Part shown: positions 3,767 to 57,300 of the stretch, piece by piece
How the letters are laid out: every line of letters begins with the position of its first letter
Numbering within the stretch: the first letter of the stretch is position 1
Origin: Escherichia coli
GTDB lineage: Bacteria; Pseudomonadota; Gammaproteobacteria; Enterobacterales; Enterobacteriaceae
Assembly: GCF_002854065.1 (NCBI RefSeq)
Contig: NZ_CP024147.1
Direction: 5' to 3' (one strand)
DNA: 64,000 bases
Made by a program: the position numbers and the translations under genes
Notes under the pieces: generated by a model
The model's database searches: none
What the model saw: the letters and a program-made list of their open reading frames with translations, nothing else
What the model was told of the DNA's origin: nothing

Positions 3767-3958
3767 ATGTCTTGTCCAAAATGCGGTTCTGGAAATATTG
3801 CAAAAGAAAAAACAATGCGTGGATGGTCTGATGATTATGTGTGCTGCGATTGCGGATACAACGACTCTAAAGACGCATTTGGAGAGCGTGGTAAAAACGA
3901 GTTTGTCAAAATTAATAAAGAACGCGAAGGCGGTGATGCTGCCAACTTACTGATTTAG
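3767..3958 (+). CDS. Small zinc-ribbon protein (CxxC...CxxC); native last 4 codons displaced by IS1
   Basis: GGAGG RBS, MSCPKCGSGN...CCDCG; reading frame runs into IS1 at 3932; native C-terminus ...EREG-NEKS* reconstructable across the insertion. Confidence 0.5.
   Translation: MSCPKCGSGNIAKEKTMRGWSDDYVCCDCGYNDSKDAFGERGKNEFVKINKEREGGDAANLLI
3923..3931. repeat. 9-bp target site duplication (CGCGAAGGC), left copy
   Basis: Identical 9-mer directly abuts both ends of the IS1 at 3932-4699. Confidence 0.9.
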
Positions 3959-3986
3959 TGTATGATGGTGTTTTTGAGGTGCTCCA

Positions 3987-4262
3987 GTGGCTTCTGTTTC
4001 TATCAGCTGTCCCTCCTGTTCAGCTACTGACGGGGTGGTGCGTAACGGCAAAAGCACTGCCGGACATCAGCGCTATCTCTGCTCTCACTGCCGTAAAACA
4101 TGGCAACTGCAGTTCACTTACACCGCTTCTCAACCCGGTACGCACCAGAAAATCATTGATATGGCCATGAATGGCGTTGGATGCCGGGCAACCGCCCGCA
4201 TTATGGGCGTTGGCCTCAACACGATTTTCCGCCATTTAAAAAACTCAGGCCGCAGTCGGTAA
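3987..4262 (+). CDS. insA: IS1 InsA
   Basis: 91 aa [18 protein letters not shown]... Confidence 0.9.
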
Positions 4263-4684
4263 CCTCGCGCATACAGCCGGGCAGTGACGTCATCGTCTGC
4301 GCGGAAATGGACGAACAGTGGGGATACGTCGGGGCTAAATCGCGCCAGCGCTGGCTGTTTTACGCGTATGACAGGCTCCGGAAGACGGTTGTTGCGCACG
4401 TATTCGGTGAACGCACTATGGCGACGCTGGGGCGTCTTATGAGCCTGCTGTCACCCTTTGACGTGGTGATATGGATGACGGATGGCTGGCCGCTGTATGA
4501 ATCCCGCCTGAAGGGAAAGCTGCACGTAATCAGCAAGCGATATACGCAGCGAATTGAGCGGCATAACCTGAATCTGAGGCAGCACTTGGCACGGCTGGGA
4601 CGGAAGTCGCTGTCGTTCTCAAAATCGGTGGAGCTGCATGACAAAGTCATCGGGCATTATCTGAACATAAAACACTATCAATAA
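4181..4684 (+). CDS. insB: IS1 InsB frame (made as InsAB' by -1 frameshift)
   Basis: 167-aa ORF overlapping insA in -1 frame; A6C slippery motif intact. Confidence 0.85.
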
Positions 4685-4699
4685 GTTGGAGTCATTACC

Positions 4700-5245: not shown

Positions 5246-5437
5246 ATGACCGATACCAGCCTGATTCCTGAGAAAGAAGTGATGAACAAGCTCGGTGTTT
5301 CATCACGTCAGACAATCTGGAACTATACCAAACGGCACGGATTTCCGAAGCCAGTCAGAACCCACCCCAAATCATACCTTCGTGAAGCTGTTGAAGGGTG
5401 GATTCTTAACGGTGGCGTTAATCAGAAATGCTCCTGA
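5246..5437 (+). CDS. alpA: AlpA-family phage transcriptional regulator / excisionase-like
   Basis: 63-aa HTH protein resembling AlpA (MTDTSLIPEKEVMNKLGVSSRQTIWNYTKRHGFPKP...); adjacent to integrase. Confidence 0.7.
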   Translation: MTDTSLIPEKEVMNKLGVSSRQTIWNYTKRHGFPKPVRTHPKSYLREAVEGWILNGGVNQKCS

Positions 5438-6596
5438 TGTGCCAGAACAATTTATCAGCGTGAAGCTCATACGCTTTGCGCTGAGCCTCTATCCAGTCGT
5501 GTTTATTGTATACGGACATTATCCCGCCAAGTTCATGACCGAGCATTCGCTCAGTAACATGAGGCTCGACATTCATCTCGGACAGACGTGTAACAAGCGT
5601 TCTTCTGAAATCGTGTGTTCGCCAGTAACCTAGATCCATCCCTCCCCTTATTCTATTTACGAATCGGTTGGCTGCAGCGATGCTGATCGGTTTGTTTATG
5701 TCTTCTCCAGGGAAAAGAACATCATTGTACGTTGTCATGGCCTTTTCGAGGAAAGGCTTAATTTGTTCGAAGATTGGACGGCGGATAACATTACCCATCT
5801 TGCTATGCTCTTTCGGTACGGTCCATACGTTTTCCAGCAGGTCAAATTCTGTCTTTTTTGCCAGCCTAAGCTCTGAGAGCCTCGCCCCCCACAGCATAAG
5901 CATCTGATGAAGTAGCTTATTTGACGTAGACGCACGGCTTCTTTCAATAGCAAGCCAAATCTTAGCCAGTTCGTGATACGACAGTACCCGATCCCCTACC
6001 TCAGCGCGGGAGCCGAAGTCCCTTGGTTGGATGCTCATAATTGCGCAACTATCTATCAACTGACGCCGCATGCACCAACTTATTGCTGATCTTAGTTGAC
6101 TTAGCACCTGCCTTGCTCGGCGTGGATTATCTCTTTCTTCTTCGGTAAGCAGGTCAACCCATTGCTTAACCGTGATAGAAGATGCCGGACGATTAGGAAA
6201 GGCGTCATGCATGCGCTTCATAACCGTTGATCGGTAAAGTGCCTGGGTCTTTTCTCTGAGAGTTGTAGAGACGTAGTTGTCGAACCAGTAGTCGAGACAC
6301 TGGGCGACCGTCATGGAGTTCTCCACCTTCTCTTCAAAATAAGTGCGTGGATCCGTTCCTGAGAAATAGAGCTTTCGCAAGTCAGCAGTGATCTGTCTGG
6401 CATCCTTCAAAGACAGGGATGGGTATCGACCAAGCCCAAGTCGATTAGGCTTGCCATGCCAGCGATAGCGGTACTGGAACTGGATGACCCCCTTCGGTGA
6501 AATTCGTACGCTGAGGCCATCGGCATCAGCCACTTCTTGTGGGCCCGAATATGGTTTACCATAAATACTACGCAGTTTTGTGTCGCTTATAGCCAT
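5418..6596 (-). CDS. int: Tyrosine-type site-specific integrase (P4/CP4-57-like)
   Basis: 392 aa; C-terminal catalytic region with R...HDFRRT...LGH...Y motifs. Confidence 0.9.
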   Translation of the reverse strand: MAISDTKLRSIYGKPYSGPQEVADADGLSVRISPKGVIQFQYRYRWHGKPNRLGLGRYPSLSLKDARQITADLRKLYFSGTDPRTYFEEKVENSMTVAQCLDYWFDNYVSTTLREKTQALYRSTVMKRMHDAFPNRPASSITVKQWVDLLTEEERDNPRRARQVLSQLRSAISWCMRRQLIDSCAIMSIQPRDFGSRAEVGDRVLSYHELAKIWLAIERSRASTSNKLLHQMLMLWGARLSELRLAKKTEFDLLENVWTVPKEHSKMGNVIRRPIFEQIKPFLEKAMTTYNDVLFPGEDINKPISIAAANRFVNRIRGGMDLGYWRTHDFRRTLVTRLSEMNVEPHVTERMLGHELGGIMSVYNKHDWIEAQRKAYELHADKLFWHIRSISD

Positions 6597-6777
6597 AAAT
6601 AATATTTGGTACGCTCAGAAATAATGGTTTGGTACACATCTGGTACACAATATCACATGGACAACAGCGCACAGTAAACAACTATATTTGACGTTCGTAG
6701 ACATACTCAGGTGAAAAAATGGTTGTTTTTCGAGTTATAACAGACAGTTAATTAACTACAGTGGACAATGCTAGACA

Positions 6778-8202
6778 ATGACAGACGCAGATAAACAACC
6801 TACCTTCCTCTTTCACGATTACGAAACCTTTGGCACGCACCCCGCGTTAGATCGCCCTGCACAGTTCGCAGCCATTCGCACCGATAGCGAATTCAATGTC
6901 ATCGGAGAACCCGAAGTCTTTTACTGCAAGCCCGCTGATGACTATTTACCCCAGCCAGGAGCAGTATTAATTACCGGTATTACCCCGCAGGAAGCACGGG
7001 CGAAAGGAGAAAACGAAGCCGCGTTTGCCGCCCGTATTCACTTGCTTTTTACCGTACCGAAGACCTGTATTCTGGGCTACAACAATGTGCGTTTCGACGA
7101 CGAAGTCACACGCAACATTTTTTATCGTAATTTCTACGATCCTTACGCCTGGAGCTGGCAAAACCGCAATTCGCGCTGGGATCTGCTTGACGTGATGCGC
7201 GCCTGCTATGCCCTGCGCCCGGACGGCATCAACTGGCCGGAAAACGACGACGGTCTGCCGAGCTTCCGCCTGGAACATCTCACCAAGGCCAACGGTATTG
7301 AACACAGTAACGCCCATGATGCGATGGCCGACGTTTACGCGACCATCGCCATGGCGAAGCTGGTGAAGGCCCAACAGCCAAAGCTGTTTGATTATCTGTA
7401 TGCCTACCGGGGCAAAAACAAGCTGATGACGCTGATTGACGTCCCGCAGATGAAGCCACTGGTGCATGTCTCGGGAATGTTTGGCGCCTGGCGCGGAAAC
7501 ACCAGCTGGATTGCGCCGCTGGCCTGGCATCCGGATAACCGTAATGCGGTGATCATGGTCGACCTGGCGGGCGACATCGCCCCGCTGCTCGAGCTGGATG
7601 CCGATACGCTGCGCGAGCGCCTGTATACGCCGAAGGCCGAGCTCGGCGACAGTTCGCCGGTGCCGATTAAGCTGGTGCATCTGAATAAGTGCCCGGTGCT
7701 GGCGCAGGCCAATACCCTGCGCCCAGAAGACGCTGACCGTTTAGGCATTAACCGACAGCACTGCCTGGATAACCTGAAACTGCTGCGCGATAACCCGCAG
7801 GTGCGCGAGAAGGTGGTGGCGATTTTTGCTGAAGCCGAGCCGTTTGTCGCATCGGACAACGTCGACGCCCAGCTTTATAACGGTTTCTTTAGCGACGCCG
7901 ACCGCGCGGCGATGAAAATCGTGCTGGAGACCGAGCCGCGCAATCTGCCGGCGCTGGACATTACCTTCGCCGACCCGCGTATTGAGAAGCTGCTGTTTAA
8001 CTTCCGCGCGCGCAACTTCCCCGGCACGCTGGATGAAAACGAGCAACAGCGCTGGCTGGAACACCGTCGGCAGATCTTCACCCCGGAATTTTTACAGGCC
8101 TACGCCCAGCAACTGGAGATGTTGTACGGTCAGTATGAGGGGAATAACGAGAAGCTATCGCTGCTGAAGGCGCTGTATCAGTACGTGCAGGAGATTGTTT
8201 AA
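6778..8202 (+). CDS. sbcB: Exodeoxyribonuclease I
   Basis: 474 aa, near-colinear with E. coli SbcB (FLFHDYETFGTHPALDRPAQFAAIRTD...). Confidence 0.95.
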   Translation: MTDADKQPTFLFHDYETFGTHPALDRPAQFAAIRTDSEFNVIGEPEVFYCKPADDYLPQPGAVLITGITPQEARAKGENEAAFAARIHLLFTVPKTCILGYNNVRFDDEVTRNIFYRNFYDPYAWSWQNRNSRWDLLDVMRACYALRPDGINWPENDDGLPSFRLEHLTKANGIEHSNAHDAMADVYATIAMAKLVKAQQPKLFDYLYAYRGKNKLMTLIDVPQMKPLVHVSGMFGAWRGNTSWIAPLAWHPDNRNAVIMVDLAGDIAPLLELDADTLRERLYTPKAELGDSSPVPIKLVHLNKCPVLAQANTLRPEDADRLGINRQHCLDNLKLLRDNPQVREKVVAIFAEAEPFVASDNVDAQLYNGFFSDADRAAMKIVLETEPRNLPALDITFADPRIEKLLFNFRARNFPGTLDENEQQRWLEHRRQIFTPEFLQAYAQQLEMLYGQYEGNNEKLSLLKALYQYVQEIV

Positions 8203-9505: not shown

Positions 9506-9560
9506 GGTGATGCTGCCAACTTACTGATTTAGTGTATGATGGTGTTTTTGAGGTGCTCCA

Positions 9561-9836
9561 GTGGCTTCTGTTTCTATCAGCTGTCCCTCCTGTTCAGCTA
9601 CTGACGGGGTGGTGCGTAACGGCAAAAGCACCGCCGGACATCAGCGCTATCTCTGCTCTCACTGCCGTAAAACATGGCAACTGCAGTTCACTTACACCGC
9701 TTCTCAACCCGGTACGCACCAGAAAATCATTGATATGGCCATGAATGGCGTTGGATGCCGGGCAACTGCCCGCATTATGGGCGTTGGCCTCAACACGATT
9801 TTACGTCACTTAAAAAACTCAGGCCGCAGTCGGTAA
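9561..9836 (+). CDS. insA: IS1 InsA
   Basis: 91 aa. Confidence 0.9.
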
Positions 9837-10258
9837 CCTCGCGCATACAGCCGGGCAGTGACGTCATCGTCTGCGCGGAAATGGACGAACAGTGGGGCTA
9901 TGTCGGGGCTAAATCGCGCCAGCGCTGGCTGTTTTACGCGTATGACAGTCTCCGGAAGACGGTTGTTGCGCACGTATTCGGTGAACGCACTATGGCGACG
10001 CTGGGGCGTCTTATGAGCCTGCTGTCACCCTTTGACGTGGTGATATGGATGACGGATGGCTGGCCGCTGTATGAATCCCGCCTGAAGGGAAAGCTGCACG
10101 TAATCAGCAAGCGATATACGCAGCGAATTGAGCGGCATAACCTGAATCTGAGGCAGCACCTGGCACGGCTGGGACGGAAGTCGCTGTCGTTCTCAAAATC
10201 GGTGGAGCTGCATGACAAAGTCATCGGGCATTATCTGAACATAAAACACTATCAATAA
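9755..10258 (+). CDS. insB: IS1 InsB frame
   Basis: 167 aa; A6C motif intact. Confidence 0.85.
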
Positions 10259-10273
10259 GTTGGAGTCATTACC

Positions 10274-55321: not shown

Positions 55322-56068
55322 TTATGCTTTGTGATATAAGGCTTTTGCTTTCCCCGTTGTGCGCAGACGTAATAAATAAGATAATTCTGCAAGCAGGCCC
55401 GGCATACGTAATATTTCACGCTGCACTTTTTTTGCATCCTGGCACAACTGTAGATTATTTGTGGTGGACACGCCGCCCATCGAAAATTCCGACACCAAGC
55501 CTTTAATACGTTTAAAGGCATATCCCGACTTATACATCCGCGCCGCCAGCGCATAATCAGAAGAGACACGATACTGCACATCATAAGGATGATTTTTCAG
55601 CCCACGCAGCGGGAAGAAAATAGCCTGATGGCTAGCCGGTAGGCTGTGATAAATATACCAACCCTGCTTAGCGCTACGGCGAATCTGGGTGCCGTCGCCA
55701 AAGTCCAGCATCGCATCGCCAAGGTACATGGCATCATCGCTTTTACCGCGCAGCTGACGGACGAACTGCGACACATCCGGATGAAAGCTGTCGCCGGAAT
55801 TCAGAAACAGCACAAACTTGCCCTGCGCCATGCGGATGCCTTTGTTCATCGCATCGTAAAGCCCTTTATCCGGTTCGCTGACGTAGCGTAAGTGGTACTG
55901 GCCGTTACGTTTTTCGAGGAACTCTGCGGTGCCATCGTTAGAACCGCCATCCACCACAATCCACTCGAAAGTGAGGCTGGGATCGTTTGCCAGATGGGCC
56001 AGAGAACGCCAGGTTTTCACCACGCCATCAACGTTACGAAACGCGACGGTAACCACGCTTAACAACAT
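55322..56068 (-). CDS. wcaE: Colanic acid glycosyltransferase WcaE
   Basis: 248-aa GT2; synteny. Confidence 0.85.
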
Positions 56069-56076
56069 GCTTCACC

Positions 56077-57300
56077 TCATCTGCTGTCAGCAATATTCAG
56101 CGCTTTACGCAGAATAAAAGGACAAACAATTAAAAATGCATATTCCGGACTAAATATCGAACCGGTAAAAAATAATGATATCGGCGTGAAAAGATACAGC
56201 TGCACGGCGAAATTACGATTATTCCCAAAAGCGTTAATGAACATTTTAAATACGTAGTACAGATACCCAGCCGTTAATATCACAGCGAACCACGAAAAAT
56301 AAATCATTAACAGATACAGACCATTGTCTATGGTTTTACCGACATCCGCACCGTTAAATATTCCGAATGATGCAACATATTCGTAAAGAGAACCAAAACG
56401 CACGACCCCATCAATGCTGGTTAATGAATAACCGACCATCACCAATGGACCAATTATACGGTAATACGATGACGATCCTTCCGTTCCTAAATCACCAATA
56501 CGCTCGGCAATATAGGGGAATGCAAACACCAGACCGATAAAAAATGCGCCTAATGAGATAATCGCCAACGGTAACTTTTTCTTGATCGCTTCTTTGTTCA
56601 GGTACTGGAAAGCCCACTCCAGCAGATAGAACAGGATAAATGTCATAACCCCAGAAAACGATCCAGAAAGAATTATCCCTGCCAGAATCATAGCATCAGA
56701 CTTCGGGGTTTTGATACCAAACTGTTTGATGCAAAGCCAAATTGAGATTAATGCCAGAGCAAAAAATGCCGGTTCGAAATATAACGCAGTGGTGCGCTTT
56801 CCACCGAATTTGATAAAATTCAGCACATAGCTATTACTGTAAATAAGATATTTCGAAATCGTCGCTATCAAACTGCTGCCGCCGGTGAGAATAATCTGCG
56901 CCATCTCCAGCGCCGCCAGCGCCACCACCAGGGTAATCACCACATAGAAAAAACGCAGGATCTTACGGTGGTTATGCGGTGAAATGGTTTTGAAGCGAAT
57001 GCTCCAGACCATGCCGATAATGATCACGATATAGACAAACAGCATCGTCGAGGTGACATATTTGCTGGGGTCCAGCGATTGTCCAAACAGATAGTTGAAC
57101 AACGTCAATCCTACGCCCAGTCCGAGGGCAATCATCAGTTTTTTCAGATTAATGCGTTCAACAAACAACAGCAGCAACAGCGGAAGGAACGTCACAATGG
57201 TAATGGGGAAGCTCTCCCCCAGCTGCGCCAGCTTCACGTTAACCAACAGGTAGATTAACGGCAGCAGCAGATAGCTACAGACTCTGATAGAACGAGACAT
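56077..57300 (-). CDS. wcaD: Colanic acid polymerase WcaD
   Basis: Start at MSRSIRVCSYLL (~407 aa polytopic membrane protein); the 69-codon 5' extension in the ORF track overlaps wcaC and is rejected. Confidence 0.85.
   Translation of the reverse strand: MSRSIRVCSYLLLPLIYLLVNVKLAQLGESFPITIVTFLPLLLLLFVERINLKKLMIALGLGVGLTLFNYLFGQSLDPSKYVTSTMLFVYIVIIIGMVWSIRFKTISPHNHRKILRFFYVVITLVVALAALEMAQIILTGGSSLIATISKYLIYSNSYVLNFIKFGGKRTTALYFEPAFFALALISIWLCIKQFGIKTPKSDAMILAGIILSGSFSGVMTFILFYLLEWAFQYLNKEAIKKKLPLAIISLGAFFIGLVFAFPYIAERIGDLGTEGSSSYYRIIGPLVMVGYSLTSIDGVVRFGSLYEYVASFGIFNGADVGKTIDNGLYLLMIYFSWFAVILTAGYLYYVFKMFINAFGNNRNFAVQLYLFTPISLFFTGSIFSPEYAFLIVCPFILRKALNIADSR

Follow-up and report, generated by a model that had tools for sequence, protein, structure and literature searches.

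The attachment site (attP) of phage lambda is made up of arm-type sites (P1, P2 and P'1-3), a core, and sites for Xis and for integration host factor (IHF), and phages 21 and e14 integrate into icd and bring with them a replacement for one end of that gene. Closest to the locus described here are the Shiga toxin (Stx) 2c phage 2851 and the Shigella serotype-converting phage Sf101, for which a 13-bp attP, CGTAATCGTGAAA, located in the 5' end of sbcB, has been published (PMC4159516). Our locus lies in a 64-kb stretch of Escherichia coli DNA (64,000 nucleotides, the whole of which is called the window here), where the gene of a phage integrase (int, 5418–6596, minus strand) is separated from sbcB (6778–8202, plus strand) by a spacer of 181 bp (6597–6777). 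We propose that this spacer is part of the int-proximal attachment-site arm of a lambdoid prophage, integrated at the known sbcB 5' site of its integrase group, and that the TGGTACRC repeats it carries are arm-type sites for the integrase; for the two together we put the probability at about 0.82.

A further system invites comparison, namely the KplE1 (CPS-53) IntS/TorI module of E. coli K-12, which is also present in HK620, Sf6 and CUS-3. Experiments on KplE1 have shown that the promoter PintS lies across the int-proximal arm, with its -10 box partly covered by an arm-type site for IntS, that both IntS and TorI repress intS, and that five TorI sites lie between the core and the promoter (PMC2951348).

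The window shares with 2851 and Sf101 the integrase group, the 13-bp core and the position of the target in sbcB. There is no essential difference at the junction; the prophage described here is, however, broken up by one IS1 and terminates in a second. Already known are the attachment site, integrase group, target and general mechanism. The published accounts of 2851 and Sf101 give the 13-bp core only: the five arm repeats and the replacement of the sbcB start are not described there, and, as far as we found, neither the five-site arm layout nor the 5'-end replacement is spelled out elsewhere in the literature, although both are what one would ordinarily expect of a heterobivalent tyrosine integrase system.

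The phage/host junction lies inside sbcB

The junction was mapped by a three-way alignment of the window, the attP of phage HK140 and an empty K-12-type site. The window follows HK140 attP up to 6823, save for two substitutions (6745 and 6787), and is identical to the empty site from 6811 onward, with only scattered identities to the left of that point (back to 6794); the core therefore lies at 6811–6823. These 13 bp, TTTCACGATTACG, are the only stretch common to all three sequences, form the reverse complement of the published attP and occur once in the window. Strand exchange occurred within them, over sbcB codons 12–16, which places the true phage/host junction 34 bp into the open reading frame of sbcB; all DNA left of the core comes from the phage.

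6597–6810, no strand: int-proximal attP arm, phage-derived, comprising the whole int–sbcB spacer and sbcB codons 1–11
6811–6823, no strand: attachment core of 13 bp, TTTCACGATTACG, the crossover region, encoding F-H-D-Y-(E) of the first exonuclease motif

The free phages HK140, mEp234, HK544, Sf101 and 2851, together with several Stx1- and Stx2-converting phages, match window positions 5300–6800 end to end, and the int–att DNA of the window is 98.7–99.5% identical to theirs (98.7% for 2851 and Sf101). This colinearity with free-phage attP agrees with an earlier reading of the window, made from the sequence alone (the sequence-only reading), which had named the spacer as a candidate attachment region of the prophage. 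The int–spacer–sbcB arrangement is present in 577 of 5,426 complete E. coli genomes. Among the genomes with no integrase beside sbcB (about 4,830 of the 5,411 that match), the match begins either at 6794, at 93–96% identity, or at 6811, at 100%, and the spacer is unrelated to what precedes sbcB at the empty K-12-type site. The far junction can be read in E. coli strain 100416: coming from dacD, it consists of native sbcB upstream sequence, 12 native codons, the core and then phage sequence with TTTGGTACGCAATTTGGTACAC. An Stx2c-phage record (LC645426) annotates a 13-bp “duplication due to insertion”; its second copy was not found within 55700–56700, the range inspected.

These comparisons bear on two other accounts of the spacer, neither of which we believe has any real chance of being right. 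The first, that of the sequence-only reading, puts the boundary and the core within 6597–6777, with the GACAATG or the TTGGTAC repeats marking the junction. The spacer does separate the integrase gene from the first host gene, and there is a short duplication at the sbcB start, but free-phage attP is colinear with the window through the spacer to 6823, the empty site diverges to the left of 6811, the published core is a 13-bp sequence inside sbcB, and both GACAATG copies are found in free-phage attP. The boundary had thus been set 34–46 bp too early and in the wrong kind of sequence. Likewise, the expectation that no core could be defined without the far end of the prophage did not hold, given the published 13-bp attP and the alignment of attP with the empty site. 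The second account takes the repeats for native promoter or regulatory sequence of sbcB, unrelated to the prophage, and it was the comparison with empty sbcB loci that the sequence-only reading had named as able to reveal this. Nothing was found in favour of this account, and that comparison goes the other way: some 4,830 of the 5,411 matching complete E. coli genomes do not have the spacer sequence and match only from inside sbcB (6794 or 6811), TGGTAC is absent from the native upstream sequence, which differs from the spacer at the K-12-type site as well as at the far junction, and the repeats travel with the integrase to other targets, including argW and a PfpI-like gene (see below).

Two database records deserve mention here. 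The GenBank entry of HK140 carries a 147-bp misc_feature, “putative attP,” that takes in the core and the two far-arm repeats and omits the 200-bp int-proximal arm with its three repeats. Strain 100416, from Gambia, has a remnant at sbcB that consists of an IS1-truncated integrase gene, an acyltransferase gene and the decayed gene of an S24 peptidase, after which the far junction comes; the acyltransferase may be an O-antigen acetylase like oacB of Sf101.

A surrogate 5' end for sbcB

Since the junction falls inside the gene, the beginning of sbcB is itself of phage origin.

6778–6810, plus strand: phage-supplied sbcB start and first 11 codons (MTDADKQPTFL), replacing the native MMNDGKQQSTFL
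6778–8202, plus strand: chimeric, intact sbcB, encoding exodeoxyribonuclease I (474 amino acids), with a phage 5' end and bacterial sequence from 6824 onward

The phage arm supplies the sequence upstream of sbcB, the start codon and the N-terminus, and sbcB is rebuilt intact with a surrogate 5' end. The product matches the Pfam models RNase_T and Exonuc_X-T_C, each over nearly its full length, and the gene is annotated as sbcB in RefSeq, without a pseudogene flag (in the one lysogen record examined in detail). The N-terminus reads MTDADKQPTFLFHDYE in the lysogen and MMNDGKQQSTFLFHDYE in the native protein. All nine sbcB-type arms hold exactly one in-frame ATG, GTG or TTG, placed 36 nucleotides before the core His codon (42 in Salmonella phage SEN34) and followed by a variable, SbcB-like N-terminus of the form QPTFLFHDYE. 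That every one of the nine keeps an in-frame start and such an N-terminus argues for selection to keep sbcB functional in lysogens. Many further prophages at sbcB were seen in viral contigs from other hosts, with integrases 68–93% identical to that of the window and junctions that read TTCCACGATTACGAAACC; their phage-borne SbcB N-termini differ (MADTDKQPTFL, MKNESNQPTFL, MKDNDRQNTFY and others).

As in phages 21 and e14, integration takes place inside a coding gene, and a diverged copy of the displaced end keeps that gene intact. The icd substitute, however, is a 3' end; here it is a 5' end, so that the phage has to supply promoter, ribosome-binding site and start. Because this integrase clade enters its targets at the 5' end (see below), the int-proximal arm would have to carry an outward-facing promoter that now drives sbcB, one that a consensus scan did not detect.

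The prophage does not belong to the class that targets tRNA genes, its attachment core being in the coding sequence of sbcB. The whole window is free of tRNA genes according to ARAGORN, which bears out the sequence-only reading on this point.

Five repeats on the two arms of attP

The TTGGTAC(A/G)C repeats and the GACAATG pair reported by the sequence-only reading are present where it had placed them, the third TTGGTAC(A/G)C copy matching at 8 of 9 bases (TGGTACAC at 6641–6648, preceded by C).

6606–6614, plus strand: candidate Int arm-type site 1, TTGGTACGC, with its GTAC 13 bp from the int ATG
6629–6637, plus strand: candidate Int arm-type site 2, TTGGTACAC, with its GTAC at offset 36
6640–6648, plus strand: candidate Int arm-type site 3, CTGGTACAC (cTGGTACAC), with its GTAC at offset 47, 11 bp after site 2

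The window as a whole holds eight copies of TGGTACRC, against 2.5 expected; no other two lie closer together than about 2.5 kb, and a search for paired TGGTAC sites elsewhere in the window found none. The complete attP of HK140 has five copies, all on one strand and within 293 bp (0.21 expected in the 6.5-kb locus), a number that was not reached in any of 200 shuffles; when the 320-bp attP stretch was shuffled, any 6-mer in five or more copies appeared in only 2 of 5000 trials. The repeats are well beyond chance.

Measured from the int ATG, HK140 attP has three copies at 11–52 bp, the core at 215–227 bp and two more copies at 284–303 bp. The latter two lie 57–81 bp past the core, on the other arm of attP, and end up at the far junction after integration. 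Counted from the core, then, three sites lie at about -205 to -170 bp and two at about +57 to +81 bp. This recalls lambda attP, with its heterobivalent tyrosine integrase and five arm sites of one family split between a long and a short arm. It differs from lambda in that the three-site long arm adjoins the 5' end of int, not the 3' end, and in that int would have its own divergent promoter region; furthermore, there is no convincing conserved IHF consensus, and the integrase belongs to the P4-like Arm-DNA-bind_3 group. As to IHF, the consensus WATCAANNNNTTR gave only scattered matches across 13 arms, mostly at 8 of 9 specified positions, and at no conserved position.

The layout in related phages

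We compared six phages whose integrases are 49–61% identical to that of the window: Salmonella SEN34, a Klebsiella prophage, Proteus phage Brookers, Cronobacter ENT39118 and two Stx-type phages. Five of the six retain both arms in a 3+2 layout, with distances as in HK140 and with TGTACTYA or ATGTACAC as the motif; the Klebsiella record is a prophage junction and keeps only the three int-proximal sites. Viral contigs were also scanned with an alignment of these integrases, which yielded 80 loci with 36 distinct upstream sequences (Int 59–99% identical). GTAC stands at offsets 12–13, 35–36 and 46–47 from the int start in all 36, and also at offsets 285–287 and 297–299 in all seven sequences that retain both arms.

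When 13 int-proximal arms were placed in a near-ungapped alignment, all 12 GTAC columns proved invariant, as against about 25% of columns overall; in the far arm, no 4-mer is invariant other than the two GTACs. The bases that flank GTAC vary between integrase lineages and partly between the sites of one arm (TGGTACRC, TGTACTYA, ATGTACAC), and by these flanking bases all sites have one orientation. The GTAC-anchored 3+2 layout is fixed across the integrase clade, over 49–99% identity and at least three target genes.

The integrases themselves are most conserved in the arm-binding domain (59–73% identity) and least so in residues 86–200 (39–54%), the expected core-binding region. Over residues 86–200, the integrase of SEN34, which has the same sbcB core, and that of the Klebsiella prophage, the core of which has GATTACGAAAC, are closer to the integrase of the window than are those that target argW.

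Probable arm-type sites and possible control of int

5418–6596, minus strand: tyrosine integrase of 392 amino acids (open reading frame and Pfam), of the 2851/Sf101/HK140/mEp234 group, with transcription directed away from the attachment site
6649–6662, minus strand: conserved block AATATCACATGGAC, which in the int sense reads TGTGATATT at 6649–6657, an extended -10-like sequence and candidate int promoter

The integrase has the heterobivalent layout, with an N-terminal arm-DNA-binding domain (Arm-DNA-bind_3, PF13356, residues 4–85, E = 7.5e-18) and a C-terminal tyrosine recombinase domain (Phage_integrase, PF00589, residues 204–366, E = 1e-16), and by tblastn is 98–99.7% identical to the integrases of HK140, mEp234, HK544, Stx phages and relatives. 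The TGGTACRC repeats are probably arm-type sites for its N-terminal domain, because they stand on both arms of attP, keep their position across the clade and are matched by an arm-DNA-binding domain in the integrase; the suggestion of the sequence-only reading that they are candidate integrase-binding sites is thereby strengthened. The five sites would be bound by the arm-binding domain, bridging the arms to the core in an intasome for integration and excision.

The same sites may also serve to control int. The block CAATATCACATGGAC (6648–6662) follows the third site immediately and shows little or no variation among the 13 arms (alignment columns 52–66), and we read the TGTGATATT block within it as the putative int promoter (this is our own reading and not the result of a tool). 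Since the int-proximal trio is flanked by this -10-like block on one side and the int ATG on the other, Int bound there would act as a repressor of int as well. The arrangement is like that of KplE1 in several ways: int is read away from the adjacent attachment arm, the small excisionase gene (here a candidate) is not co-transcribed with int, and arm-type Int sites (here candidate sites; in KplE1, repeats of GGGTAAAA) lie directly upstream of the int ATG. The two differ in that KplE1 uses the 3' end of argW and this clade the 5' ends of its target genes, and in their site motifs. For an int promoter of the KplE1 type within the arm, the gene orientation fits and the -10-like block at 6649–6657 is conserved, but the consensus scan finds no promoter. 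KplE1 IntS was also considered as a close relative of the integrase and set aside: the two are only 22% identical (E = 3e-12) and belong to the same broad family only.

The GTAC sites might instead serve chiefly as operators at the int promoter for another protein, be it the 63-residue excisionase-like product described below, a repressor of the phage or a factor of the host. All three int-proximal sites do lie within 52 bp of the int ATG, beside the conserved -10-like block; in KplE1, the excisionase TorI too binds direct repeats in the int-proximal arm and represses int; and GTAC is a palindrome, suited to a dimeric regulator. A pure int operator, however, leaves unexplained the conserved pair in the far arm, some 240 bp away and across the core. 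All five excisionase sites of KplE1 are on one arm, between core and promoter, a position held here by a different motif, G[AG]AC; the integrase carries a dedicated arm-binding domain in need of targets; and the single orientation of the flanking bases at all sites fits a palindromic operator poorly. We consider this alternative quite unlikely.

Several points weigh against our account as a whole. The 13 aligned arms share ancestry, and part of their conservation is inherited; the argument rests on invariant GTAC in diverged surroundings. Binding of Int at the GTAC sites is a prediction from sequence. The prophage is broken by IS1 and its far arm is not visible, so the sites may be non-functional in this genome. 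A consensus scan of 6450–6900 for promoters and terminators gave nothing on either strand (no sigma-70-like promoter), and we therefore infer both the int promoter and the outward sbcB promoter. The regulatory analogy with KplE1 is one of layout and not of homology (IntS 22% identical, the similarity of TorI to the candidate excisionase not significant). Finally, the five arm repeats are not described in the searchable literature, which returned unrelated primer matches only and did not cover the original phage 2851 paper.

The GACAATG pair and the phased array

5246–5437, plus strand: candidate excisionase or recombination directionality factor of 63 amino acids, converging on int and overlapping its 3' end
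6752–6796, plus strand: RAC array (TTAAC, TGGAC, TAGAC, CAGAC, TAAAC) with an exact 10-bp period, taking in GGACAATG and AGACAATG

The GACAATG pair consists of GGACAATG at 6763–6770 and AGACAATG at 6773–6780, and sbcB starts at the ATG of the second copy. The sequence-only reading had listed this pair as part of a candidate integrase-binding or attachment region. Both copies are already present in free-phage attP, so that no duplication upon insertion is involved, and the pair is phage DNA that carries the surrogate sbcB start.

Whether the pair has a binding function is a different matter, and for the view that it has none (being due to chance, or having arisen as the arm copied the ribosome-binding region and start codon of sbcB) we hold the odds to be about even. 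A repeated 7-mer turns up in 46% of shuffles of 6651–6790, which puts the pair, taken alone, at chance level. The second copy holds the surrogate ATG and the first a GGA 12 nucleotides upstream of that ATG (the native site has its GGA 10 nucleotides upstream), and SEN34, with the same core, lacks the duplication. On the other side, both copies fall in the five RAC pentamers at their exact 10-bp period, and one strand of the HK140 arm has six copies of GACA, an enrichment matched in none of 3000 shuffles. Over the 13 arms taken together, the plus strand has 49 copies of G[AG]AC and the minus strand 7, with conserved positions near offsets 63 and 166; the one at about 166 is kept in 8 of the 13, including at least one arm that targets argW (Lyz12581) and so needs no sbcB ribosome-binding site.

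The array may consist of accessory sites bound by the excisionase or Int, may copy the ribosome-binding region of sbcB, or may do both; phased at 10 bp next to the core, and with the GACAATG pair included, it may bind the 63-residue candidate excisionase. That protein matches phrog_66, “excisionase and transcriptional regulator” (E = 1.9e-8), and is annotated as an AlpA-family regulator in homologous phage records; it has no Pfam match and NCBIfam was uninformative, so that its assignment as an excisionase comes from PHROGs only, and its similarity to TorI is not significant (E = 1.1).

Extra motifs, TGGACAA and TAGACAT, were seen in the window at 6657–6666 and 6698–6707 (offsets of about 63 and about 104 from int). 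The first of these positions reads TGTAC in the arms of SEN34 and one other relative, and the two motifs are possibly additional weak arm-type sites. The first GACAATG copy also contains an out-of-frame ATG (6768) that opens a mini-open reading frame of eight codons, MLDNDRRR, with its stop at 6792–6794, overlapping the sbcB start at 6778.

Target genes of related integrases

Phage SEN34 has an integrase only 61% identical to that of the window and yet an identical core, CCTCTTTCACGATTACG, which stands at an unchanged offset of about 218 bp upstream of int, with arm sites of the form TGTACTYA; the targeting of sbcB is therefore older than the E. coli phage group. The sister integrases that enter argW (54–56% identical; Stx-type phages and Proteus phage Brookers) use a 24-bp core corresponding to nucleotides 1–24 of the tRNA-Arg gene argW, as confirmed in a lysogen record where the remainder of argW follows the core. 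It is thus the 5' end of argW that is targeted, and not the usual 3' end of a tRNA gene, and the phage arm would have to supply the tRNA promoter.

A third target is seen in Klebsiella prophages with integrases 61–62% identical, which adjoin a gene for a PfpI-like “intracellular protease.” The equivalent of the core, GATTACGAAAC, lies in its N-terminal codons, where it encodes D-Y-E-T, and has 11 bp in common with the sbcB site; this hints that these 11 bp may be the true crossover and core-binding sequence. All three identified targets, then, are entered at the 5' end: sbcB at codons 12–16, argW at nucleotides 1–24 and the PfpI-like gene at its N-terminal codons. The clade thus rebuilds its target genes from the 5' side.

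Both the RAC array and the candidate Int sites cover, or shortly precede, the ribosome-binding site and start codon of sbcB. One could imagine that the clade is specialised for entry at 5' ends, the int-proximal arm doubling as surrogate promoter and 5' end, in which case lysogeny would rewire exonuclease I expression and Int or the excisionase could lower sbcB on induction. We regard this as unlikely. If true, however, a fall in sbcB on induction could aid phage Erf/Abc2 recombination by removing a 3'-5' exonuclease that acts on single-stranded DNA.

State of the prophage

The other end of the prophage lies outside the window, as the sequence-only reading had recognised: the 13-bp core occurs in a single copy, and positions 1–287 are already the end of an inverted IS1 that is cut by the window start. 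Matches to phage genomes begin at 288. A second IS1 (3932–4699) sits within the early region of the prophage, with a 9-bp target duplication, CGCGAAGGC. Among the complete E. coli genomes, none proved identical to the window, the best matches spanning 80% of the query at 91% identity, and it is for this reason that the far junction was read in strain 100416. It may be that only a remnant of the prophage survives here, a situation reported for the sbcB region of Shigella flexneri genomes.

The window contains a third copy of IS1 (9506–10273, target duplication CGAATCCCA), located 12 bp upstream of a truncated tsuA/yeeE open reading frame whose alignment with K-12 TsuA starts only at residue 19 and shows just 85% identity.

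Implications

The end of this prophage is corrected here, and the correction reaches well beyond a single genome, since about one in ten complete E. coli genomes (the 577 of 5,426 noted above) carry the junction. The integrase group includes Stx-converting phages and Shigella serotype-converting phages, and all their lysogens owe both the sequence upstream of sbcB and its first 11 codons to the phage. Boundary callers that take the integrase gene or the intergenic spacer as the limit will fall short by about 214–227 bp (from 6597 to 6810–6823). Taken together, the five GTAC-anchored sites, the -10-like block and the phased array next to the core provide a testable map of the attachment site of a medically relevant integrase.

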